Counted from the stretch's first letter, positions 28,457 to 54,890 are shown. The stretch is 64,000 nt of DNA from a virus (IMGVR_UViG_3300032319_000326:27734-91733); one strand, 5' to 3'. Made by a program: numbers and translations. Notes: generated by a model from the sequence alone, not told the origin.

Positions 28457-31400
28457 ATGCCAATACAAGAAGGCGGTACATTCGCCCCAACACAAAATAT
28501 AGTAAGTCCAGGAGTTTTCACAAGAGAAAATGACCTGTCAGGTTTAGCACAAGGAGTAGCCAATATCGGCGGAGCTATAGTGGCTCCGTTCGCCGATGGT
28601 CCAGCATTCTTCCCAGCAACAATTACCGACGTAGCCACTTTGGAAAGTCGTTTCGGTGTAGCCGATGGAGTGTATTATGGTCCATATACCGCAAAAGAAT
28701 ATCTACAACAACAAGGTATCGTTACAATTGTTCGTGTAGGTGGTCTAACTGGTTATTGGCAAAAGAATCCATTACTTGTTTATGCTCAACCAGGTGAATG
28801 GTTAAGAAATGGTGATGTAGGTGCAATTACAACTGCATCTTTCATGTATCTAGACAGTAATAGTTATACTACAAATATTAACTATCAACAAAGTAGTTCT
28901 GTTCTATTATCATCTGGTAGTAAGGCAGGATCCGCTGAGTTTAGAAACGTCACAAACTATTTCAGTGTAACTAAAGCTACTAACAGTCAAATTTTAAGTT
29001 TTGTATCTCAAATTTCAAGTTTACCAAATGCTTTAACACTATCAGCATCGTTAGCAAATTCTGCTAGTAAGGGTAAAGTATTGAAAATTACAACCAGTCG
29101 ATATAACTCTCTATTCACAGGATCCGCTGTTAGAAGAGGTAAGACTGTAAGCGATACTTCGGGATATACACTAGCAGCATTTGACTTTGCAAAGTCAAGA
29201 TTGTCTGGATCTTTGTCATCGAGTTATACCGTTAGATCCGAATCTGTACTAAAATTTGATACAGCAACTTTTGCTTCTACAGGAGGCAGTCAAAATGCAG
29301 CTCCAACTCCACCACAATCTTATTTCAGTTATTTAACAGCATCATATACACTGTCAGGCGCTAACATTGTATATGGATTAGTATTTGGTAAAAATTCATT
29401 AGCAGCATCTAACAATGTAAACTTTAGTTCTGTTACTTATAATTTAAATCTATCTACCGGAAGTTATTGTTTTAGATATGATAACTCCAGACTGTATTTA
29501 AGTGGTTCATCAAATATCACATTTGGTCCAAAAACAGCAACCAGTGCTATAGACGCAAATGCGGTTGATGGTGTAAATGGTCCTACTGGTTCCGGATTAA
29601 GTGGTAGTATTTTATATGCTGGTCAAAAATTGAATATTGGTGGAATTGGTCCTATATTATTTACACGTAAAAATGTAGATAACAGTGTTTATCCATATTA
29701 TTATTTGACTTCAAGTGTACAAGGACAAGCTATAAGTGAAGAAACAGCAATCTCTACAGCATTTGCAGAAAGTACAACTACAACCGCATTAGTATCCAGT
29801 TCTTACTTCGGCAATACTACTGGAAACGTAGTTGTTAATTATAATCCGACTGTAATTAATGTAGGTTCTACCGGATTAAAATATGTGAGTGGTAGTTTCG
29901 CCTCTATCAGAAAAGTAGGTACATGTGTTGCCGGTCTACAACTTAAAGGTGTAATTAGTGGTGCTTTCGGTAAATATAATGGAAGTTTCCAAAACCAAGA
30001 TAATCCAGGTAATGATCCGTGTAACCCAAATACAGCCGGTCGTCAAAAGATGATTTTGGCAGTATTGGCTAACACACAAAATGCTTCAACACAATTTAGT
30101 AACGATTATGAAGTATACGGATTCAACACTTCTACAATGTCACAATTAACAAGTAGTGTTTATCCATACAACGGATTAATCAATCCTAACGAAAACGTTT
30201 ATAACTTGGCATTGAAGTATAACTTCTCAAATACAAATGGTAGTATAAGTGCTGGTACATATGGTTATTATGATTTCAGCTTGAATGAAAATGATAATAA
30301 CTACATCAAGGACGTATTCGGAATTGATCCTACAGTAGGTAATCCTAACAAGCAAATCGCCGGTCAAAAGGTCGAAGCTGCTTACAACTACGTTCTATTC
30401 GAAGATAGTATTAAGAAGTTCGTAGCTGAAAAGACAAGTACTCTTGGTTGGAGATTGTTGGTAGGTACCAGTACTCTATCCGGCAGTTCAGTTATCGGCG
30501 AACCTCTAAAGTTTGTTGATCAGTACAGTACAAATCTAAGTGCTGGAGATAGTCAATTTGGTATTACAAATGCTTATACACCTTACATTTATAGTCAACA
30601 AATTGCTCCGTTCAGAAGTAGTGCGAATGAAGCTGCTGTCCCAACTAAGTTCCAATTGTTCAAAGTACATACTTTAAGCGACGGTAGTTTGAGTAACAAA
30701 AAATTCAAGATTGAAATTAGCAATGTTAAGTTAGCCGGTACAGTTCCAGGCAGTGATTGGGGTACATTCACCGTAGCAGTACGTGATTATAGTGATACGG
30801 ATAAGAAGCCAAAATATTTGGAAATCTTCCAAAATTGTAACTTAGATCCCGATTCCGCTAACTTCGTAGCCCGTAAAATTGGTAATAGATATGCTTACAT
30901 CACGTTTGCAGGTAAGATTATCCAATTTGGCGATTATGTTAATTTGAGTAAATATATTAGAATTGAAATGGCAGATGGATCTTATCCAGTTTCTTCTGTA
31001 CCATACGGATTCGAAGCATATAATACACCAATTGATAGTACTGCAAGTACATATATTCCTTATATTCAATATAGCAAGGCAAGTATTTATGGTTTAGCAC
31101 CAGGCAAGTATCCATCAGGTACTGTATTTGGTGCTGTACCACAAAGTGATGATGAAATTCTATCTCTATATCCAACCTCTTCGTTTGGTGTAGGTGTAGA
31201 AAATAATACTCAACAATACTTCAAACCACTACCATACTTTGGTAGTACAGATGCAAACGGTCAAAATATTGACTTCGATCTTGAAGATAAAGTTTGGGGT
31301 ACAAGTACAGCTAAATATTACGCGCAAGGCGTTCCAGCAAGTACTGGTTCACTACTAGCTCCAAGTTTGAGTGGTAGTATCCCAAGTACATATGATGCTG

Positions 31401-32425
31401 TAAATGAATCTACATATGTTAAGTTACGTAAATTCGTAATCGGATTCCAGGGTGGATTTGAAGGTCAGTGGCCAGCAATTCCAATCAATGTAGGTAGTAG
31501 CATTACAGCCGGTAATACACAGGGCCTAGATTGTACAAGTATCAATAGTCCTGGTAGTATCGGTTACAAACAATGTATTGCTGCTCTAAGTAATGCGGAT
31601 GAATTCGATATCAACTTGATCGTGTTGCCTGGTATCTTCCGTGAAGTACACAGTTATGTTACCGAATTGGTAATCAATATGTGTGAAACTCGTCAAGATT
31701 GTTTCTACATTATGGATAACGTAGTGTTCCCAGCAAGCAATCAAACTGTAGGATTGATTGATGCAGCAATTAACAGTGTTGCTACAATCGACAGTAATTA
31801 TGTAGGTACTTATTATCCTTGGGTTAAGATCCTAGATACTAATACCAACAAGATCATCAGTGTTCCTCCTTCAGTGGTATTACCAGCAGTTTACGCTGCT
31901 AACGATAACTCCGCTGCTGAATGGTATGCTCCCGCGGGTTTAAACCGTGGTGGTATTCCAACAGCTGTACAAGTACTTGATAGAGTAAATCACAGTGAAC
32001 GTGATACCTTGTACGAAGGTCGTGTAAATCCAATCGCAGCATTTCCTGGTCAAGGTATCTGTGTATGGGGTCAAAAGACTCTACAAATCGCCCCAAGCGC
32101 TTTGGATCGTATCAATGTACGTCGCTTGTTGATCAACTTGAAGAAGTTTATCGCAAGTTCAAGCAACTACTTGGTATTTGAACAAAATGTTGCTTCTACA
32201 AGAAATCGTTTCTTGAGTATTGTAACTCCATACTTGGAATCAGTACAACAACGTAACGGTATCTACGCATTCCAAGTCAAGATGGATGCTGAAAACAATA
32301 CTCCTGACCTAATTGATAGAAATATCCTATATGGTCAAATCTTTATCCAACCAACTCGCACAGCTGAGTTCATTATACTTGATTTCAACATACTCCCATC
32401 GGGCGGCGCCAGCTTTAGTGCTTAA
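28457..32425 (+). CDS. Contractile tail sheath protein (T4 gp18-like) with large Ser/Thr-rich insertions
   Basis: SPGVFTRENDLS, YYPWV, WYAPAGLNRG, WGQKTLQ, LDRINVRRLL, QPTRTAEFI. Confidence 0.95.
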   Translation: MPIQEGGTFAPTQNIVSPGVFTRENDLSGLAQGVANIGGAIVAPFADGPAFFPATITDVATLESRFGVADGVYYGPYTAKEYLQQQGIVTIVRVGGLTGYWQKNPLLVYAQPGEWLRNGDVGAITTASFMYLDSNSYTTNINYQQSSSVLLSSGSKAGSAEFRNVTNYFSVTKATNSQILSFVSQISSLPNALTLSASLANSASKGKVLKITTSRYNSLFTGSAVRRGKTVSDTSGYTLAAFDFAKSRLSGSLSSSYTVRSESVLKFDTATFASTGGSQNAAPTPPQSYFSYLTASYTLSGANIVYGLVFGKNSLAASNNVNFSSVTYNLNLSTGSYCFRYDNSRLYLSGSSNITFGPKTATSAIDANAVDGVNGPTGSGLSGSILYAGQKLNIGGIGPILFTRKNVDNSVYPYYYLTSSVQGQAISEETAISTAFAESTTTTALVSSSYFGNTTGNVVVNYNPTVINVGSTGLKYVSGSFASIRKVGTCVAGLQLKGVISGAFGKYNGSFQNQDNPGNDPCNPNTAGRQKMILAVLANTQNASTQFSNDYEVYGFNTSTMSQLTSSVYPYNGLINPNENVYNLALKYNFSNTNGSISAGTYGYYDFSLNENDNNYIKDVFGIDPTVGNPNKQIAGQKVEAAYNYVLFEDSIKKFVAEKTSTLGWRLLVGTSTLSGSSVIGEPLKFVDQYSTNLSAGDSQFGITNAYTPYIYSQQIAPFRSSANEAAVPTKFQLFKVHTLSDGSLSNKKFKIEISNVKLAGTVPGSDWGTFTVAVRDYSDTDKKPKYLEIFQNCNLDPDSANFVARKIGNRYAYITFAGKIIQFGDYVNLSKYIRIEMADGSYPVSSVPYGFEAYNTPIDSTASTYIPYIQYSKASIYGLAPGKYPSGTVFGAVPQSDDEILSLYPTSSFGVGVENNTQQYFKPLPYFGSTDANGQNIDFDLEDKVWGTSTAKYYAQGVPASTGSLLAPSLSGSIPSTYDAVNESTYVKLRKFVIGFQGGFEGQWPAIPINVGSSITAGNTQGLDCTSINSPGSIGYKQCIAALSNADEFDINLIVLPGIFREVHSYVTELVINMCETRQDCFYIMDNVVFPASNQTVGLIDAAINSVATIDSNYVGTYYPWVKILDTNTNKIISVPPSVVLPAVYAANDNSAAEWYAPAGLNRGGIPTAVQVLDRVNHSERDTLYEGRVNPIAAFPGQGICVWGQKTLQIAPSALDRINVRRLLINLKKFIASSSNYLVFEQNVASTRNRFLSIVTPYLESVQQRNGIYAFQVKMDAENNTPDLIDRNILYGQIFIQPTRTAEFIILDFNILPSGGASFSA

Positions 32426-32434
32426 TTAAACACA

Positions 32435-32467
32435 AAAACCCCATCGTAATTGATGGGGTTTTATTTT
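32435..32467 (+). terminator. Intrinsic terminator after sheath
   Basis: AAAACCCCATC-gtaatt-GATGGGGTTTT followed by a T-rich tract. Confidence 0.85.
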
Positions 32468-32515
32468 ATTTATTAGGATTTTAACTTTTTACCCACTCAT
32501 ATACTATTTATTAAT

Positions 32516-32866
32516 ATGAAGGATATTAAAAGAATTTGTGAATGGACCGGTCAAGAATTTTATGTCGATTTTAAACATAGAAACCAAAGATTTATAGATA
32601 AAAATGCAATGTATTCGTGGAGAAAAAATCAAAATAGAGAAATGATTAAATGTTTAAAGTGTGGAAAAGACTTTGAAAGATATAAAAATATATTACATCC
32701 GACGAGCGGAAAGCCTACTCAGTACTGTTCAAATGATTGTAATAGAACTTCTATTGAAAAACGAGAAAAATTAAAAAACTGGGCAAATTCAAACAAGAAT
32801 CATTGGTTTAATAAAAAATGTCAATCAAAAGTAAAAACAACAAATTTTCTTTTTTTGACTTTTTGA
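32516..32866 (+). pseudogene. Truncated homing endonuclease N-terminus (treble-clef Zn fingers)
   Basis: CLKC...YCSNDC Zn motif. Ends abruptly at KVKTT, where a KYG repeat would start. Confidence 0.55.
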
Positions 32867-32908
32867 AGTTTGGTGTAATATTTATCTATTAGATAAGGAG
32901 TATTGTAT

Positions 32909-34414
32909 ATGACTGAACGAGGTAAAAAAATAAGAGAAGCATTTTTCAAAAAGTATGGTGTTTATCATCCGTCTCAATTGCCTGAAGTTAAAGCTAAAAT
33001 AAAGCAAAAGAGAGACAGTGGTGCGTATGACAATATGGTAAAAAAGATGAAGGATACTCTAAAAGAAAAATATGGAGATGAAAACTATAACAATGTAGAG
33101 AAGGGAAAACGCACCAAATTGGAGAAATATGGAGATGAAAACTATAATAACAGAGATAAAATGACGCAGACCAACAATAAGAAATATGGAATGAATGTTT
33201 CACCTAACACTCTTAAAAGAACTCAAGAACGTGCATCTAATGGAGATATTGGTTTTAAATCTGATCAGTTTAAACAATATCTTGAAGATAATAATATAAA
33301 AAATGTGTCTCAATTATCGTGCGTTAAAGAAAAAAAGAGACAGGAGAAGATCAATTGTATGGTTGCAAATATTTTTGACGGCGGGCGTCTTAATAACGTT
33401 GTGTTACCTATTTTTCGACGAGAAGAATATACGGGGTGTGATTATGATAAAATGTATAAGTTTAAATGTTGTAAATGCAACAATGAATTTCAAGATAACT
33501 TATACTCTGGAAATATTCCACGTTGTTTGAATTGTTATCCTCACAATAGGTTTAAGTCATCAATAGAAACGGAGATTTTAGATTTCTTACATTCGTATAA
33601 CATAGAAACAAAACATCATGATAGAACTATTTTAAATGGATACGAAATTGATATATCAATACCATCACGCAATTTTGCAATTGAATGTGATGGAGTTTAT
33701 TGGCATAGTGAAATTGCTGGTAACAAGAACAAACATTATCATCTTAACAAAACTTTAAAGTGTAATCAGCAAAATATTCAATTGATGCACATATGGGATT
33801 GGGAATGGTGGTGTAAACAAGATATAATAAAAAGTATTTTATTAAGTAAGCTTGGTAAGTCCAAAAGAATATTTGCACGTAAATGTGAAATAAAACAAGT
33901 GATTAATGACGAAAAAGCTGCATTTTTGACCGATAACCATATACAGGGAAATGATACATCATCTATCAGATTGGGATTATATCACAACGATGTTTTGGTC
34001 TCACTAATGACGTTTGTTAAATCTAGATATGACAAAAAATATCAATATGAGTTATCTAGATATTGTAATATATTAAACACAAATGTAATAGGGGGTGCAT
34101 CTAAACTATTCAGTTATTTTGTAAAAAATCACGATGTAAATTCGATTGTAACGTATAGTGATAGAAGATTGTTTACTGGTAATTTATATAAACAAATTGG
34201 TATGTCATTTGTAGATAACACTCCGTCTGGATATCACTATTTTCATAAAAACAAAGGGGTACCAATTGAAAGAACACATTTTCAAAAACATAAATTGAAA
34301 GAAAAGCTTGAAAAATTTGATATTAGTTTAAGTGAATGGCAAAATATGCAAATTAATGGTTATGATAGAATTTGGGATTGTGGACATATGAAATTTAGTT
34401 GGAATCGTAAATGA
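32909..34414 (+). CDS. Free-standing homing endonuclease (Hef-like): KYG repeats, Zn ribbon, Vsr/EDxHD-type nuclease, C-terminal Mom/GNAT-like domain
   Basis: EIDI...AIECDGVYWH, HIWDWEW, FARKC, NHIQG, ELSRYC, GGASKL, TYSDRR, GYDRIWDCG. AAGGAG upstream. Confidence 0.8.
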   Translation: MTERGKKIREAFFKKYGVYHPSQLPEVKAKIKQKRDSGAYDNMVKKMKDTLKEKYGDENYNNVEKGKRTKLEKYGDENYNNRDKMTQTNNKKYGMNVSPNTLKRTQERASNGDIGFKSDQFKQYLEDNNIKNVSQLSCVKEKKRQEKINCMVANIFDGGRLNNVVLPIFRREEYTGCDYDKMYKFKCCKCNNEFQDNLYSGNIPRCLNCYPHNRFKSSIETEILDFLHSYNIETKHHDRTILNGYEIDISIPSRNFAIECDGVYWHSEIAGNKNKHYHLNKTLKCNQQNIQLMHIWDWEWWCKQDIIKSILLSKLGKSKRIFARKCEIKQVINDEKAAFLTDNHIQGNDTSSIRLGLYHNDVLVSLMTFVKSRYDKKYQYELSRYCNILNTNVIGGASKLFSYFVKNHDVNSIVTYSDRRLFTGNLYKQIGMSFVDNTPSGYHYFHKNKGVPIERTHFQKHKLKEKLEKFDISLSEWQNMQINGYDRIWDCGHMKFSWNRK

Positions 34415-34430
34415 TCACTATTTATATATT

Positions 34431-34721
34431 ATGATACGATTGACTCAAATTATTGAAGATTTAACCAAACCACAGATTAAAGAAGCTGTAGATCCATCTC
34501 TTTTAAAGTTAATTGACGAAGTAATTAATGACACAAATGTTTTGGTAGTTAATAATTTAAAGATGGTAAAAGACATTCTTTCAAAAGAACCAATTGATAA
34601 AGCTAGATTAGACGTGGCTCTAAGCAACTATAAACGTTATTTTAATAGAGACAACGGTGGCACGCCTGAAGTTATTCGTGGTATGACAATGCAAAATAAA
34701 CTAGACAAGTTATCAAAATGA
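34431..34721 (+). CDS. Hypothetical protein with N-terminal MIRL..I.E motif
   Basis: 96 aa; TATTTATA at 34419. Confidence 0.55.
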   Translation: MIRLTQIIEDLTKPQIKEAVDPSLLKLIDEVINDTNVLVVNNLKMVKDILSKEPIDKARLDVALSNYKRYFNRDNGGTPEVIRGMTMQNKLDKLSK

Positions 34722-37122: not shown

Positions 37123-37137
37123 TCATATTTATTCTAT

Positions 37138-40698: not shown

Positions 40699-43600
40699 AT
40701 GGCAGATCAATCATTTCAGGAATTAAGAAATCGTTCATTATTTGCACGTTTGAAACGTTTGTTTTCAAACGATGTAATCGTTCGTAATATCGGAGGTAAA
40801 AAGTTAAAGGTTATTGATACGGATGAAATTCAGTATGCTACGGATCGTAATAGTTTAAGAGATCGATTTAATAGATTGCGTACAAGTTCATATAATCAAT
40901 ATACCAGAGATTTTAATTTATCATATCAAAGCAGTCGTGTAGAACTATTTCGTGATTATGACTGTGTTGGTCCTGATACAATCATACCTCTACCAGATGG
41001 TACTAAACCAACTATAGCTGAACTAACGGAGAGATATAAAGATAAACCCCAAGAAAGATTTTATGTATTTTCATACGATCACGAAACTGACAGTATAAAA
41101 TTAGGTAAAGCATTTCATCCACGTAAAAAGGCAGGTAAACGTCAGGGATACAAAGTTACATTTGATAACGGACAGTATGTAGTTGGAAGTTTGAAACATC
41201 CGTTTATGATGCGAGATGGTTCATATAAACGAATTTTTGAACTAAGAGTCGGTGATTCAGTGATGCCATTTTATGAACATGAATATGGTTATAAAAAGAA
41301 TGGAATTAAACCTTATAGACGAGTTTATAATTTTTCTAAAGGTTATCAATCAATACATAAAATGGTTGTGGAACAATTTCAGAGAAAGTTGAATGGTGAT
41401 GAAGTAATTCATCATAGAGATTTTAACGGGTTTAATAATTCTCCAGAAAATTTACAAATAATGGACCGAAAAAATCACTATGAATTTCATGCTAACCATA
41501 GTAAAAATGTAATATGGAGTGATGAAAATTATGAAAACCAACTCAACAAATTAAAATCACATCCAAATTATATTAACCGTGAGTTTCATCATTGGGATGG
41601 AGAACGAAATGGTGAGAATAACCCGTTTTATGGAAAAGAACATTCTAATGAATCGAATGAAAAGCGTTCAGAGACTCTTAAATCTGTATTTGTTAATAGA
41701 GATCAAACCGGAGAAAAAAATCCAAAATATAGAGGTGATGTAACATTTGATAATGTTAAAGAAAAAGCATACGAATATTACAAAGAATATTCAAAAATCA
41801 ATTTGTGGGATTTCATTAAACATATAAAGTGTGATCATTCTACTCTTCAAAATCGTCTCAAAAAAGAGAAGCATGACTGGAAATCTTTTAAACAAGAAGT
41901 AGAAACTACATTAAATCATAAAATCGTATCTATTGAGATGGTGGGTGAAACAGATGTATATGATGTCACAGTTGAGGAGTATCATAACTTTGCGACTGAT
42001 AGTTGTTTCGTGAAAAATACAATGGATATGGATCCAATTCTAGCATCTGCATTGGACATTTACTCGGATGAATGTACAACCAGAAATGAAATGGGAGAAA
42101 TTCTACAAATCAAATCCACAAACGATGAAATCAAGAATATATTACATAATTTGTTCTACGATATTCTAAATATTGAATTCAATCTTTGGAGTTGGACTCG
42201 TTGTATGGTTAAGTACGGAGATTTCTATCTTCGTCTGCATATTAGTCCTGAATACGGAGTCTACATGGTAGAACCTCTGAGTACCTATTATGTTACCCGT
42301 GTAGAAAATGCTGTGTTGACAAACAAGAACTTTGTTAAGTTTCAAGTCAATCTTCCATATGGAAACAAAATGGAAGATTTAGAAAATTATCAAATTGCAC
42401 ATTTCCGTTTATTGAGCGACAGTAACTTTTTGCCATATGGAAAATGTTTAGTCGGTGAAACTCACGTTGATACCGAATTTGGTTCTAAATATATAAAAGA
42501 TCTACTCATTGGAGAAAAAATATGGTCTTTCAATACAAATAACAAATTGTTCGAATTAACCAGTGTAAAAAACAAAATCAACTCTGGTGTAAAAGAGACT
42601 ATCAAAATTAGAACTCAACACAATTTTATAGAATCTAGCAAAACCCATCCTATTTTAACTTTTAATAAAGTTACAAATGAATTGGAATACAAACAAACGT
42701 CTGATGTCAAGATTGGAGATTTGTTGTTAATAAACGCCAATGAAAACAAAAAATCAAAAATTTGTTATATTAACACAGATTTGGTCGGTTTTAACAAAAA
42801 CGGATGGAAAAATAATGTTATCAACTTACCTAACAACATAGACTGCGAGTTTTCTGAATTAATGGGATTTATGATTGGCGATGGGTGGTTGAGTGGAGAA
42901 AATACTAGAGTGAATTTTGCTATAGGGACAGATGATATACAAAACAAACATTATGCGTCTATTTTAGAAAAATATTCGGGGAAAATCGGAAATTGGTTGT
43001 CTCCCAAGAAAAATTCAGGCGGACAATTTTATGTTGATAACAAAATGTTGGCAACTGTATTGTTTAATAATGGGTTGATTGGAAAAGCAAAAACTAAAAG
43101 AATACCAACGTGGGTGTTTGAATCAAGTGAAGACATACAATTAGCTTTCATTAAAGGATTGACAAACGCCGATGCGTGGAGTTTTGATGATGGATTTGCC
43201 AACAGATATACAATTTCATTATGCAATAAAGATTTGATATATGATTTCAAACGTCTTTTACAATTTAATAATATAAAATCGTCAATACCAACTGAAGATG
43301 ATACCGTTTCAGAGGTGACTATTTGTGGAGTTGATTGTATTAAACATGGGGAATATTCAATAAATTATTATTTGGAAGGCAACAAAAAACAACAACTCAA
43401 AAAATATAATCACTTAGACAATTCTAATATATTGTTGGAACCAGTTGTTAATATTGAGTTTACAGGAGAAAAAGAAACGTGGGATATTCAAGTTGAATCG
43501 GAAAATTCAAATTTTGTAGCAAATGGCGTCGTCGTTCATAATTCGATGTTGGAAGGCGCACGACGTGTTTGGAAACAATTAAGTTTGATGGAAGACGCAA

Positions 43601-44793
43601 TGTTAATTCATCGTATCATGCGTGCACCTGAAAAACGTATTTTCAAAGTTGATATTGGTAGTATACCTCCAAATGAAGTTGATAATCATATGGAACGTAT
43701 TATGAACCAAATGAAAAAGACTCCTTATTTGGATCAACAAACAGGAGACTATAACTTACGTTTCAATCTACAAAACATGGTTGAAGACTTTTTCTTACCT
43801 GTTCGTGGTAGTGATAGTGGTACTAGTATTGATAATTTACCAGGTCTTGAATGGACAGGAACCGATGATATCGAATATTTACGTAACAAGATGATGGCGG
43901 CACTCAAAATTCCTAAGGCATTTTTAGGTTATGATGAATCTCTATCTGGTAAAGCTACATTAGCAGCTGAAGATATTCGTTTTGCTCGTACAATTCAACG
44001 AGTTCAAAGAATTATTGTTAGTGAATTGAATAAGATCGCCGTTATTCATTTATATTCACAGGGATACCGTGACGAATCGTTGGTGGATTTCAGCCTTGAA
44101 CTTACTAATCCATCCACTATATTTGAAAAAGAAAAGATTGATGTTTGGAAGAGTAAGGTTGATGTTAGCAAAGACATGCAAGAAAATAAATTCTTCAGTA
44201 AAAAGTGGATTTATGAAAATGTATTTAGTCTTACAGATCAAGACATGATCGAATTACAAAAACAACTTATCGACGATGCTAAGGGAAATTATAGATTTAA
44301 ACAAATCGAAGAAGAAGGAAATGACCCAGCTATTAAGTTCTTAAAATCAATCGACTCTGATAAAGAAGAAGGTGGTGGTCCGGATGGAGGAACTGCGGAT
44401 GAAACCGATAGTGGATTGACCGGTGGAGATTCGGGCGGTACACCGCCAACCGAACCGCCAACCGAACCGCCAACTGAACCAACGCCTGTAGAACCAGCAG
44501 CTGCTAGTGGTGGCGAAACTAAAGCTCCTACTCCTGCCAAGTTATCTGAACGTGATCAAACTGGCAGAAAAAATGCAAGAAAATATCCATTTGGCGAAGA
44601 TCCACTTGGTACATTAGAAAACAATAGACGTAGTGATTTATCAGTAACTCACAAGTATAAAAACAAATCTCCGTTATCATTAGAATCTCTCAAAGGACTG
44701 ACTAATATGTTAAATACAGTTGAAGAGGAAAAGAAAATTTTAAGAGAAGGAGAAGAAAAATCCTACATGGATGAAAGAAATATAAAAGAATAA
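40699..44793 (+). CDS. Portal protein (T4 gp20-like) with two inteins; ~646 aa after splicing
   Basis: ALDIYSDE, KYGDFYL, PYGK|SMLE, EDAMLIHRIMRAPEKR, EDFFLPVRG, ALKIPK. Confidence 0.93.
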   Translation: MADQSFQELRNRSLFARLKRLFSNDVIVRNIGGKKLKVIDTDEIQYATDRNSLRDRFNRLRTSSYNQYTRDFNLSYQSSRVELFRDYDCVGPDTIIPLPDGTKPTIAELTERYKDKPQERFYVFSYDHETDSIKLGKAFHPRKKAGKRQGYKVTFDNGQYVVGSLKHPFMMRDGSYKRIFELRVGDSVMPFYEHEYGYKKNGIKPYRRVYNFSKGYQSIHKMVVEQFQRKLNGDEVIHHRDFNGFNNSPENLQIMDRKNHYEFHANHSKNVIWSDENYENQLNKLKSHPNYINREFHHWDGERNGENNPFYGKEHSNESNEKRSETLKSVFVNRDQTGEKNPKYRGDVTFDNVKEKAYEYYKEYSKINLWDFIKHIKCDHSTLQNRLKKEKHDWKSFKQEVETTLNHKIVSIEMVGETDVYDVTVEEYHNFATDSCFVKNTMDMDPILASALDIYSDECTTRNEMGEILQIKSTNDEIKNILHNLFYDILNIEFNLWSWTRCMVKYGDFYLRLHISPEYGVYMVEPLSTYYVTRVENAVLTNKNFVKFQVNLPYGNKMEDLENYQIAHFRLLSDSNFLPYGKCLVGETHVDTEFGSKYIKDLLIGEKIWSFNTNNKLFELTSVKNKINSGVKETIKIRTQHNFIESSKTHPILTFNKVTNELEYKQTSDVKIGDLLLINANENKKSKICYINTDLVGFNKNGWKNNVINLPNNIDCEFSELMGFMIGDGWLSGENTRVNFAIGTDDIQNKHYASILEKYSGKIGNWLSPKKNSGGQFYVDNKMLATVLFNNGLIGKAKTKRIPTWVFESSEDIQLAFIKGLTNADAWSFDDGFANRYTISLCNKDLIYDFKRLLQFNNIKSSIPTEDDTVSEVTICGVDCIKHGEYSINYYLEGNKKQQLKKYNHLDNSNILLEPVVNIEFTGEKETWDIQVESENSNFVANGVVVHNSMLEGARRVWKQLSLMEDAMLIHRIMRAPEKRIFKVDIGSIPPNEVDNHMERIMNQMKKTPYLDQQTGDYNLRFNLQNMVEDFFLPVRGSDSGTSIDNLPGLEWTGTDDIEYLRNKMMAALKIPKAFLGYDESLSGKATLAAEDIRFARTIQRVQRIIVSELNKIAVIHLYSQGYRDESLVDFSLELTNPSTIFEKEKIDVWKSKVDVSKDMQENKFFSKKWIYENVFSLTDQDMIELQKQLIDDAKGNYRFKQIEEEGNDPAIKFLKSIDSDKEEGGGPDGGTADETDSGLTGGDSGGTPPTEPPTEPPTEPTPVEPAAASGGETKAPTPAKLSERDQTGRKNARKYPFGEDPLGTLENNRRSDLSVTHKYKNKSPLSLESLKGLTNMLNTVEEEKKILREGEEKSYMDERNIKE
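40963..42018 (+). mobile_element. Portal intein 1 (352 aa) with HNH endonuclease and NUMOD3
   Basis: DYD|CVGPDT ... HPF ... IHHRDFNGFNNSPENL ... NPFYGKEHS ... VYDVTV..HNF...CFVKN|T. Confidence 0.88.
42445..43542 (+). mobile_element. Portal intein 2 (366 aa) with LAGLIDADG endonuclease
   Basis: PYGK|CLVGET ... THP ... LMGFMIGDG ... FIKGLTNADA ... TWDIQV...NFVANGVVVHN|S. Confidence 0.9.
44443..44481 (+). repeat. 12-bp tandem repeat encoding PPTE x3 in portal C-terminal tail
   Basis: ccgccaaccgaa repeated. Confidence 0.8.
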
Positions 44794-52915: not shown

Positions 52916-54745
52916 ATGAGTATGGATATTAAAAGTCTATTGACAAACAATATGAATCCACAGGCCAAATTAATGGCAGAAACACGTGGACTACAAGGCA
53001 AATGGGAAAAGACAGGCCTCCTAGAAGGTTGCAAAGGTGTTGAAAAAGCACACATGTCAATCCTATTAGAAAATCAAGCAAAACAATTGCTAGACGAAGC
53101 AACCACAACTGGTACCTCCACCAGTTCAGAACAATGGGCTGGCGTAGCTCTTCCATTGGTTCGTCGTGTGTTTGCTGAAATCGCTGCGAAGGAATTCGTA
53201 AGCGTTCAACCAATGAATCTACCATCCGGTCTAATCTTCTATCTAGACTTCAAGTATGGTACAAACGCTCCCGGACAAGATTTGCGTAACTTGAACAACG
53301 GTAGTTCTGTAACTACCCGTGGTGGTAAGCAATTGAACGATAGTTTGTTCGGTGGTACAGGTAAGAAGTTGGGTTCAACTGATAGCACAGTACGTGGTCT
53401 ATACGGTCAAGGTGCTTATGCTTATTCAATCCGTCCAGTAAGTAGTTCCGTTGTTACTCTAGCTAAAAGTGCAACCGCAACTTCAATCGGTAACACAATT
53501 CAAACAGCTTCATGGAACGACGTGCAATTTGATGCTGATTTGAGTTCATCCGTAGTAGCTAAGAAGTTGTTCAAAGTAACCTTGAATCACAGCGATAACG
53601 TAACTACTGGTATTGCTGCCAATGGTTATATGTACAACGTTGACTTGAATGCAGTACGTTCATTCAACTTAATCTCAGGTTCAACCACTCCAACATCTCT
53701 AAGAAGTAATGGTTTGGTATTGAATACATATTCTAGAGCAATTAATACTGGTAGTTTAAATACACCATTCTATCAATCAGTATATATCATATCTGCTTCT
53801 AACAGTGCATTGGGTGGTGTAGCAAGTAAGGTTAAATTGGTCTATAGTTTACAACCTACCGATAACCTACGTGGTGACTTTGAAGCTGGTAAGACAGCTG
53901 GTGAAGGTTCTGGTCAACAAGGTAACGTTGCTACACAAAGCATCGATACTGATATTAGTATCCCAGAAGTTAACTTGGTACTAAACAGCGAACCAATCGT
54001 TGCTAAGACCCGTAAGTTGAAGGCAGTCTGGACCCCAGAATTGGCTCAAGACTTGAACGCATATCATTCTATCGATGCAGAAGCAGAATTGACTGCTCTA
54101 TTGAGTGAATATGTATCTATGGAAATTGATCTTGAAATCCTAGACATGTTGAACGAATCCGTTGAAGGTATAACAACCGAAGCTTGGTCCGCCCAAATCG
54201 GTGTTGAATTCAGCAAGACATTGAATGCAAATACTGGTGAAGCATTCTTCACACGTAATGCAAACAGTTCACCAAATCGTACTGCTTACGTAAAGAGCAC
54301 TTGGTTCCAAACTCTTGGTAACAAGATTCAAAAGGTATCTAACACAATCCAAAAATTGACCCTACGTGGTGGTGCTAACTTCTTGGTCGTAAGTCCAGAC
54401 GTAGCAACCATCTTGGAATCAATCCCAGGATATGTAGTAAACACCGACGGTGACAGTGCTAAGTTCGCAATGGGTGTTGCAAGAGTTGGTAGCTTCGCAA
54501 GTCGCTTCCAAGTTTACAAGAACCCATATATGACCGATAATATCGTATTGGTTGGTTTCCGTGGAAATAACTTCCTAGAAACAGGCGCAGTGTATGCTCC
54601 ATACATCCCACTAATCCAAACTCCATTGGTCTATGATCCAGTGAACTTCACTCCACGTAGAGGTGTAATGACCCGCTACGCTAAGAAAGTCGTACGCCCT
54701 GAATTCTATGGAAAAGTTATTATCGGTGATCTCGATACCGTATAA
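52916..54745 (+). CDS. Major capsid protein (T4 gp23-like)
   Basis: LPLVRR, VQPMNLPSGLIF, AKTRKLKA.WTPELAQDL, EIDLEI, YAPYIPL, GVMTRY. Confidence 0.97.
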   Translation: MSMDIKSLLTNNMNPQAKLMAETRGLQGKWEKTGLLEGCKGVEKAHMSILLENQAKQLLDEATTTGTSTSSEQWAGVALPLVRRVFAEIAAKEFVSVQPMNLPSGLIFYLDFKYGTNAPGQDLRNLNNGSSVTTRGGKQLNDSLFGGTGKKLGSTDSTVRGLYGQGAYAYSIRPVSSSVVTLAKSATATSIGNTIQTASWNDVQFDADLSSSVVAKKLFKVTLNHSDNVTTGIAANGYMYNVDLNAVRSFNLISGSTTPTSLRSNGLVLNTYSRAINTGSLNTPFYQSVYIISASNSALGGVASKVKLVYSLQPTDNLRGDFEAGKTAGEGSGQQGNVATQSIDTDISIPEVNLVLNSEPIVAKTRKLKAVWTPELAQDLNAYHSIDAEAELTALLSEYVSMEIDLEILDMLNESVEGITTEAWSAQIGVEFSKTLNANTGEAFFTRNANSSPNRTAYVKSTWFQTLGNKIQKVSNTIQKLTLRGGANFLVVSPDVATILESIPGYVVNTDGDSAKFAMGVARVGSFASRFQVYKNPYMTDNIVLVGFRGNNFLETGAVYAPYIPLIQTPLVYDPVNFTPRRGVMTRYAKKVVRPEFYGKVIIGDLDTV

Positions 54746-54802: not shown

Positions 54803-54890
54803 ATTATATACACGATTAGTTTCAAAAAAATTACAACGGTCTCTAGGAAATTAGTTGTATTTTTGTTATAGTATTATATACTTATTGTAT

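Follow-up and report, generated by a model that had tools for sequence, protein, structure and literature searches.

The operator of the homing endonuclease I-TevI matches the homing site of the enzyme at 15 of 20 positions, overlaps a late promoter, and is cleaved approximately 100-fold less well (PMC2988022). Here, we describe a viral locus in which a similar arrangement may occur. The locus belongs to a window of 64,000 nucleotides (nt) (IMGVR_UViG_3300032319_000326:27734-91733), which is the whole stretch of DNA that was analysed and is part of a 91.7-kb uncultured viral contig. A 23-nt sequence, referred to as the mimic, resembles a site close to the 3′ end of the tail sheath gene and is positioned in front of orf116, a truncated gene from the orf247 family of endonucleases, which is followed by a second endonuclease gene, HE503. 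The mimic may be a target-like operator through which the orf247-family enzyme represses its own gene. To our knowledge, target-like operators have been proven for I-TevI alone, and we know of no target mimic described for the Seg and Mob endonucleases.

The sheath-site mimic and the orf247 cassette

The sheath site at 32381 reads gat ttc aac ata ctc cca tcg, and positions 32465-32497, located approximately 100 nt away on the same strand, read ttt att tat tag gat ttt aac ttt tta ccc act. The first-pass annotation of the window described the second sequence as an 11-codon echo of the sheath C-terminus. The letters and distances that it quoted are correct, including the 7 nt between the mimic and the promoter-like motif TATTTATT, which starts at 32505. 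The homology is restricted to the core of the echo, which begins with the GAT at 32477. The four leading codons of the echo (ttt att tat tag, against ttc att ata ctt in the sheath gene) are not conserved in related cassettes and fall in the T-rich tail of a terminator and in a TATTTAT motif. As the annotation had proposed, the mimic is closer to the endonuclease-free allele GAT TTC AAC ATT CTA CCA ACA, with which it shares 16 of 21 nucleotides, than to the sheath allele of the window locus, with which it shares 13 of 21.

The mimic was scored against the consensus GAYTTYAAYNTNYTNCCNACNGG, which was derived from the coding constraints of the sheath site and contains 18 informative positions. 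Only two of the approximately 128,000 sequence windows on both strands of the 64 kb reach a score of at least 15, the sheath site with 17 and the mimic with 16. A strict log-odds weight matrix derived from endonuclease-free sites was rejected as too harsh, since it placed the mimic (-1.6) within the top chance matches elsewhere, and the degenerate coding consensus was used instead. A scan of the 64 kb with the positions conserved among mimics identified the sheath site, the mimic, and one weak match at 42418. The weak match, GACAGTAACTTTTTGCCATATGG (42418-42440), is the sole other sequence of the 64 kb that agrees at 13 of the 15 mimic-conserved positions, and is located inside an open reading frame (ORF) of 1364 amino acids (40699-44793).

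Relatives of the window locus were collected by scanning viral contigs with the C-terminus of the sheath protein, which yielded 80 loci with amino acid identities of 73-99%. Two more scans extended the set to 100 unique loci; in all, the sheath query has more than 600 matching loci. The protein motif DFN(I/V/L)(L/M)PTG at the sheath site is conserved in approximately 250 loci. The regions downstream of the sheath gene can be divided into five classes. In the endonuclease-free class, the sheath gene is followed by a terminator and then by g96 or g261. The HE503-only class carries HE503, and the orf247 class contains an ORF of 247-266 amino acids, the first 109 residues of which correspond to those of orf116. 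The L093 type has a 320-amino-acid relative, and in the window locus orf116 is followed by HE503. The distribution of orf247 is that of a mobile gene: it is present sporadically, in 12 of the 100 unique loci, and its state changes 11 times along the sheath tree. In loci L002-L270, the region from the sheath gene to g96 is an insertion hot spot, occupied in different relatives by orf247, HE503, the 320-amino-acid L093-type gene, or small unrelated ORFs.

All 12 unique viral orf247 loci contain a sequence with a score of 14-17 within approximately 100 nt 3′ of the sheath stop codon, whereas the same region of the other 88 loci contains one sequence with a score of 14 and none with a score of at least 15. 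Among 134,944 control windows downstream of those 88 sheath genes, three score 14 and none scores 15 or more, which corresponds to a probability of approximately 0.002 for a score of at least 14 in a 110-nt region. When approximately 9 kb of each of nine orf247 loci was scanned on both strands, the score of the mimic was reached or exceeded by the sheath site and the mimic itself only, except for L091, with four such windows. A metagenome scan added approximately 13 further cassettes with scores of 13-18, of which L277-L279, L291, and L295 match the consensus at 18 of 18 positions. Thus, approximately 25 related cassettes from viral and metagenome sequences all carry the mimic, at 13-18 of 18 positions and 24-72 nt 5′ of the start of the orf247-family gene. 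The mimic reads DFNVLPTVTLV* in L067 and DNNIWPTG* in L089. The L093-type endonucleases (320 amino acids) have a different N-terminus and no mimic, and the element is absent from the endonuclease-free, HE503-only, and L093-type loci of the 100-locus set. As judged from these sequence comparisons, the mimic is a real cassette-linked feature that travels with one endonuclease family, and in this respect the first-pass annotation is confirmed.

In L291 (1149-1200), the mimic matches at 18 of 18 positions, encodes DFNVLPTG, and shares its reading frame with the endonuclease ORF. In the window locus and L277 as well, the mimic and the endonuclease are in one frame, which is open up to the ATG.

Pairs of endonucleases with 40-65% amino acid identity have a fourfold-site identity of 0.30-0.35, which represents saturation, and a mimic identity of 0.60-0.63, a value that is inflated by the choice of the best-scoring window in each cassette; the control-window frequencies are independent of that choice. 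In 17 lineage representatives, positions G1, A2, A7, T11, and A19 of the mimic are invariant, A8, C16, C17, C20, and G22 come close to invariance, and 12 of the 17 have G23. The G/C bases G1, C16, C17, C20, G22, and G23 are among the best-kept positions despite the AT-rich spacer. The mimic varies freely at T4, T5, and T14, where the coding site is invariant. Furthermore, the mimic is not nearest to the sheath allele of its own genome: in L067, L087, L089, and L288, the resident site is less similar to the mimic than 80-96% of all distinct sheath sites are. Gene conversion from the neighbouring site is therefore unlikely. From its pattern of substitutions, the mimic looks as if it were under selection and not a decaying relic.

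The TATTTAT motif is enriched before ORF starts: it occurs in 35 copies on the plus strand of the window, and 14 of these are located within 40 nt 5′ of the starts of plus-strand ORFs, usually 11-14 nt before the ATG. The spacing between TATTTATT and the ATG of orf116 matches that of the motif before g96 (34419) and of the motifs at 37126, 57606, 12634, and 13425. A similar motif was recognised by eye, unscored, 5′ of the mimic in approximately 12-13 of the 17 lineages, and in the group of the window locus a TATTTAT motif is present on either side of the mimic. At these five positions and others, TATTTAT(A/T) stands 11-14 nt before the start codon, which leaves almost no leader. The arrangement suggests that the TATTTAT motifs may be late-type promoters giving near-leaderless mRNAs.

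Sheath alleles, shared tract, and endonuclease genes

The organization of the locus is summarized in Table 1. The stem of the terminator has another sequence in the window locus than in endonuclease-free loci. At 1322 amino acids, the sheath protein is very long; sheath families are matched only by its last approximately 370 residues, and the N-terminal approximately 950 residues have no family match.

Table 1. Features of the sheath-orf116-HE503 locus, in window coordinates
Feature	Position	Strand	Evidence
Tail sheath gene, 1322 amino acids	28457..32425	+	Pfam Phage_sheath_1 and Phage_sheath_1C at residues 1035-1312; PHROG 23 tail sheath, E 4e-66
Sheath site GATTTCAACATACTCCCATCGGG, encodes DFNILPSG, presumed endonuclease recognition region	32381..32403	+	17/18 versus consensus
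Variant core TCG GGC GGC GCC (Thr to Ser and extra Gly codon)	32399..32410	+	Comparison with orf247-free loci
Cassette tract common to the window locus and intact L274: sheath tail, stop, terminator, mimic, endonuclease 5′ part	32411..32844	+	Few differences between the window locus and L274
Intrinsic terminator of sheath gene, cassette-specific type	32435..32462	+	12-bp stem and T run; folding energy -17.7 kcal/mol, z -4.4
TATTTAT promoter-like motif, directly 5′ of mimic	32467..32473	+	Motif scan
Sheath-site mimic GATTTTAACTTTTTACCCACTCA, 23 nt, putative operator	32477..32499	+	16/18 versus consensus
TATTTATT promoter-like motif, second TATTTAT(T), 11 nt 5′ of orf116 ATG	32505..32512	+	Motif spacing
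orf116, 116 amino acids, truncated orf247-family endonuclease gene; zinc-ribbon DNA-binding part kept, no nuclease domain	32516..32866	+	Alignment to L274
Junction of orf247 and HE503 cassette at TTT microhomology	32845..32849	+	Comparison with L274 and HE503-only loci
Sigma-70-like promoter of HE503 cassette: TTGACT, 16 nt, AATATT, TG in front	32855..32882	+	Conserved in HE503-only loci
HE503, Hef-like homing endonuclease, Vsr/MTES_1575-type nuclease, 501 amino acids from ATG	32909..34414	+	PHROG 3339 homing endonuclease, E 9e-111
g96, conserved gene directly after sheath terminator in endonuclease-free relatives	34431..34721	+	Synteny of relatives

The last codons of the sheath gene, TCG GGC GGC GCC AGC, were interpreted in the first-pass annotation as a signature of recoding. 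The run is unusual for the gene, in which the fraction of codons ending in G or C is 0.245, nine of 1318 five-codon windows are composed entirely of GC-ending codons, and glycine is encoded by GGT 74 times, GGA 26 times, and GGC 14 times. However, the endonuclease-free loci L003, L004, L007, L017, and L031 read ACG GGC GCT, and L017 also has GAT TTC AAC ATA CTC CCA, the same as the window locus. Since endonuclease-free alleles have the same GC-ending codons, this usage is not a mark of recoding. The window locus differs from them by TCG, encoding Ser instead of Thr, and by a duplicated GGC. The comparison with endonuclease-free relatives, which the annotation had named as a possible refutation, goes partly against the annotation: the argument from codon endings falls, and the Ser and the extra Gly remain as differences.

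Every one of the 74 loci in the first set that lack orf247 reads CCN ACN GGN GCN. The extra Gly is found solely beside orf247 cassettes with the sheath tail and terminator of the window type (the window locus, L002, L019, L083, and L272-L275). Ser is encoded by TCG, TCT, or AGT in orf247-bearing loci and by TCA beside an L093-type endonuclease. The Ser alleles are single changes at A19 or C20, bases that are nearly invariant in the mimic. Ser or extra-Gly alleles are present in 8 of the 12 orf247 loci and 7 of the 88 others (Fisher p 1e-5); two of these seven loci are beside L093-type endonucleases, one is beside a distant HE503 relative, and one, L149, is beside a decayed remnant.

The first 170 nt after the sheath stop codon of L149 contain a decayed cassette, in which GGATTTTA, corresponding to the start of a mimic, is followed by a fragment encoding IIECHGDYWH. 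The sheath allele has Ser (AGC). Read in this way, L149 is evidence of endonuclease loss with the altered site left behind.

No change at the site is common to the sheath alleles of HE503-only loci, and HE503 is accordingly not linked to the sheath target. The sheath protein of the HE503-only locus L005 ends with FPGGV*, and those of its relatives L066 and L053 with FPGA*. L005 thus has an extra codon at the second GGNGC stretch, which could be an HE503-related scar or an escape change.

Among intact cassettes, the closest to the window locus is L274, from a metagenome. Of the differences between the two, 4 fall in 32411-32848, three of these 5′ of 32845, which corresponds to an identity of approximately 99%, and 105 fall in 31335-32410, with an identity of approximately 90% in the upstream sheath gene. 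The last differences 5′ of the near-identical tract are at 32399, 32401, 32407, and 32410. Given these counts, the tail of the sheath gene, its terminator, the mimic, and the first part of the endonuclease gene constitute one recently shared unit, which is the putatively cleavage-resistant replacement 3′ end of the first-pass annotation. Ordinary recombination in the sheath gene would likewise account for a near-identical flank beside the endonuclease gene. The left boundaries of near-identical tracts were rejected as evidence for the position of the cut, since they are variable and can be explained by ordinary recombination that extends to the end of the sheath homology.

The full-length orf247 protein can be divided into an N-terminal zinc ribbon (CxxC...CxxxC), a KYGDxNYNN module that is also present in HE503, a flexible, low-confidence linker, and a C-terminal nuclease domain. 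The last contains the conserved motif VDIxxP...ECxGDYWHCNP and is Vsr-like from approximately residue 150 to residue 247. A fold search with the full-length L002 protein (mean predicted local distance difference test score, pLDDT, 80) identified as the top PDB matches 3r3p_A (E 2e-3, TMt 0.57), which is the catalytic domain of I-Bth0305I, and 1vsr, both of modest significance. Sequence searches of orf247 and HE503 against PDB chains produced nothing useful, and Vsr and I-Bth0305I surfaced in the fold search only. There is no NUMOD match in the N-terminus of orf247, and its zinc ribbon has weak similarity to L24e (E 0.13). DUF7487 was found in L067 and HE503. According to the predicted fold, orf247 represents a free-standing homing endonuclease family with a C-terminal Vsr/I-Bth0305I-like nuclease.

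Residues 1-109 of orf116 differ at two positions from the intact 247-amino-acid protein of L274 and are followed by NFLFLTF*. The protein ends after residue 109 of the family alignment and lacks both the VDIxxP...ECxGDYWHCNP motif and the Vsr-like domain. The first-pass annotation called the gene the next endonuclease and missed that it is a 116-amino-acid stump devoid of a nuclease domain. At 32845-32849, L274 continues into the KYGDENYNN-coding stretch, and the window locus continues with TTTTCTTTTTTTGAC, which in HE503-only loci forms the left end of the cassette. In comparison to L274, positions 32849-34395 of the window stand in place of 394 nt that encode the linker and nuclease. By this alignment, the HE503 cassette (32845-34414) has replaced the 3′ 60% of orf247, resulting in nested endonucleases. 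The truncation is recent, because only three codons differ from L274 in the retained part; one of the differences is synonymous and two are non-synonymous, which is too few to judge selection on the stump. The break in orf247 is positioned exactly where KYGDENYNN would be encoded, and HE503 carries that motif twice (33066 and 33125).

The ATG start of HE503 was set by alignment with L005, L010, and L070. The Pfam matches of HE503 to MTES_1575 and DUF7487 are both below the curated cut-offs, and its DNA matches are to Hef and 'EDxHD' endonuclease genes of Campylobacter and Klebsiella phages. A 619-amino-acid endonuclease encoded at 54855 has a Vsr-like motif in common with HE503 (E 5e-4). Just 5′ of its gene, positions 54839-54856 form an 18-nt inverted match (83% complementarity, one arm pair) with positions 54565-54582, inside the upstream gene.

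Explanations for the mimic

We assign a probability of about 0.5 to the explanation that the mimic is a target-like operator in the style of I-TevI, by which the enzyme would repress its own gene. In phages that lack the endonuclease, the N-terminal DNA-binding part of orf247 would recognise the sheath site, near which the nuclease would cut. The mimic would keep the binding half of the target without the sequence to its right. Bound to the mimic, the enzyme would sit on its own promoter or transcript start and cause self-repression without cutting, as I-TevI does. Resident sheath alleles would escape by the change at A19 or C20, which replaces Thr with Ser, or by the 3-nt Gly insertion, which would shift the spacing. 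The system in the window is a recent wreck, with a stump able at most to bind DNA. If this explanation holds for the whole family, the mimic gives the recognition code of the enzyme: G1, A2, A7, A8, T11, C16, C17, A19, C20, G22, and G23. From the data, a target in the sheath gene, contact bases, and escape alleles can each be predicted.

Several observations weigh against the operator. The specificity of I-Bth0305I is provided mostly by a nuclease-domain dimer bound to a 14-bp pseudopalindrome, and single substitutions are tolerated (PMC3239194). This mode is a poor fit to a bipartite model of the I-TevI kind and calls for caution. Approximately half of the orf247 lineages keep the wild-type PTGA (L061, L280, L277-L279, L091, L136, L145, L282, and L283), so the variants are not required for coexistence with the endonuclease, and the Ser alleles of L141 and L227 occur without any endonuclease. 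A tree-controlled independent-pairs sign test of the association was not significant (median p 0.25), with too few informative pairs. Relative to the site, the left ends of tracts that were shared recently are spread over +30 to +117 (+48 to +117 in the other pairs), and thus do not locate the cleavage position. The inflation of the pairwise mimic identity, mentioned above, belongs here as well. Finally, we infer the target of orf247 from sequence, and likewise its binding, cleavage, and repression.

The main rival explanation, which we consider unlikely, is that the endonuclease gene landed in the sheath 3′ end just after PTG, and that the mimic is the leftover left flank of the insertion site, functionless or serving as a spacer or ribosome-binding site. 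It would agree with the limits of the homology, which are sharp, from GAT to GG, in all lineages. Moreover, the DFNVLPTVTLV* mimic of L067 ends 5 nt 5′ of the ATG, the mimics of L291, the window locus, and L277 are in frame with the endonuclease, and the ACAGGAG end doubles as a Shine-Dalgarno-like sequence in several lineages. Neutral DNA should have decayed, yet every cassette scores 13-18 of 18 at a divergence where fourfold sites are saturated (0.30-0.35), and it is the G/C positions that are best kept in the AT-rich spacer. A relic would also leave unexplained the changes of resident alleles at A19 and C20, invariant in the mimic.

Upkeep by recombination, either as gene conversion from the nearby sheath site or because the mimic is a homology arm in homing, is improbable. 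The two copies are close together on the same strand, and phage recombination can use short homology, but the mimic is not closest to the allele of its own genome, and priming from it would delete the sheath tail and terminator, which is seen in no locus. That the mimic is bound by a general regulator of the phage or the host, with no relation to the endonuclease, is slightly less probable again. The mimic abuts a TATTTAT promoter-like motif that is used by many genes; however, the 64-kb scan yields only the sheath site, the mimic, and the weak match at 42418, and the element is missing from endonuclease-free, HE503-only, and L093-type loci. That the resemblance arose by chance, in intergenic DNA that is AT-rich, could be argued from the rank of the mimic among the top chance matches of other loci under the strict weight matrix (-1.6), and from the FIY* part of the echo, which is not conserved. 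It is refuted by the comparative data: the mimic is one of just two sequences in the 64 kb with at least 15 of 18 matches, and it occupies the same place in approximately 25 cassettes of at least ten saturated lineages, at a probability of approximately 0.002 per lineage for a score of at least 14.

The whole free-standing Vsr-like family may regulate itself through a conserved copy of its own target at the promoter, a generalization that we propose tentatively, at somewhat less than even odds. A bolder extension is that the nuclease-less 116-amino-acid stump might be kept as a DNA-binding guard, shielding the sheath site or silencing the locus against related endonucleases. A single window shows a history of endonucleases that includes invasion, an altered target, and a nested second invasion, and the relatives show decay and loss. 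If the mimic rule is general, the targets of uncharacterised phage endonucleases would be predictable from sequence alone.

Comparison with known systems

Within the same genome, the endonuclease gene at 54855 shares the nuclease motif and has a look-alike of a capsid-gene sequence before its start, as in the case of the sheath mimic, from which it differs in being inverted. The orf247 gene resembles those of the intronless homing endonucleases Seg and Mob of phage T4, whose carrier genomes have resistant alleles: some syntenic relatives have it and others lack it, conserved genes flank it, the adjacent one is polymorphic, and a flanking tract apparently travels with it. The cleavage sites of Seg and Mob endonucleases are hundreds to thousands of base pairs from their genes, whereas the presumed site of orf247 is approximately 100 nt away and is copied beside the promoter.

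The predicted C-terminal domain of orf247 folds like 3r3p and Vsr, and HE503 matches genes annotated as Hef or EDxHD, which relates both to I-Bth0305I. In contrast, I-Bth0305I is intron-encoded, has N-terminal NUMOD and helix-turn-helix modules, and cuts its 14-bp pseudopalindrome as a dimer, whereas orf247 is free-standing, has zinc ribbon and KYG modules, and has a presumed site that is non-palindromic.

I-TevI is an intron-encoded GIY-YIG enzyme for which binding and repression are proven, whereas orf247 is free-standing and Vsr-like, has a presumed target and predicted binding and repression, and is truncated in the window. The two systems are alike in having a target-like sequence just 5′ of the ORF, beside a late promoter in I-TevI and beside a putative late-type promoter here, with 15 of 20 matching positions in I-TevI (PMC2988022) and 16 of 18 constrained positions here. 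The I-TevI operator keeps the binding part and lacks the part where cutting would occur, as the mimic is presumed to do. The approximately 25 natural cassettes suggest that I-TevI-like logic may operate in an unrelated family of free-standing endonucleases.

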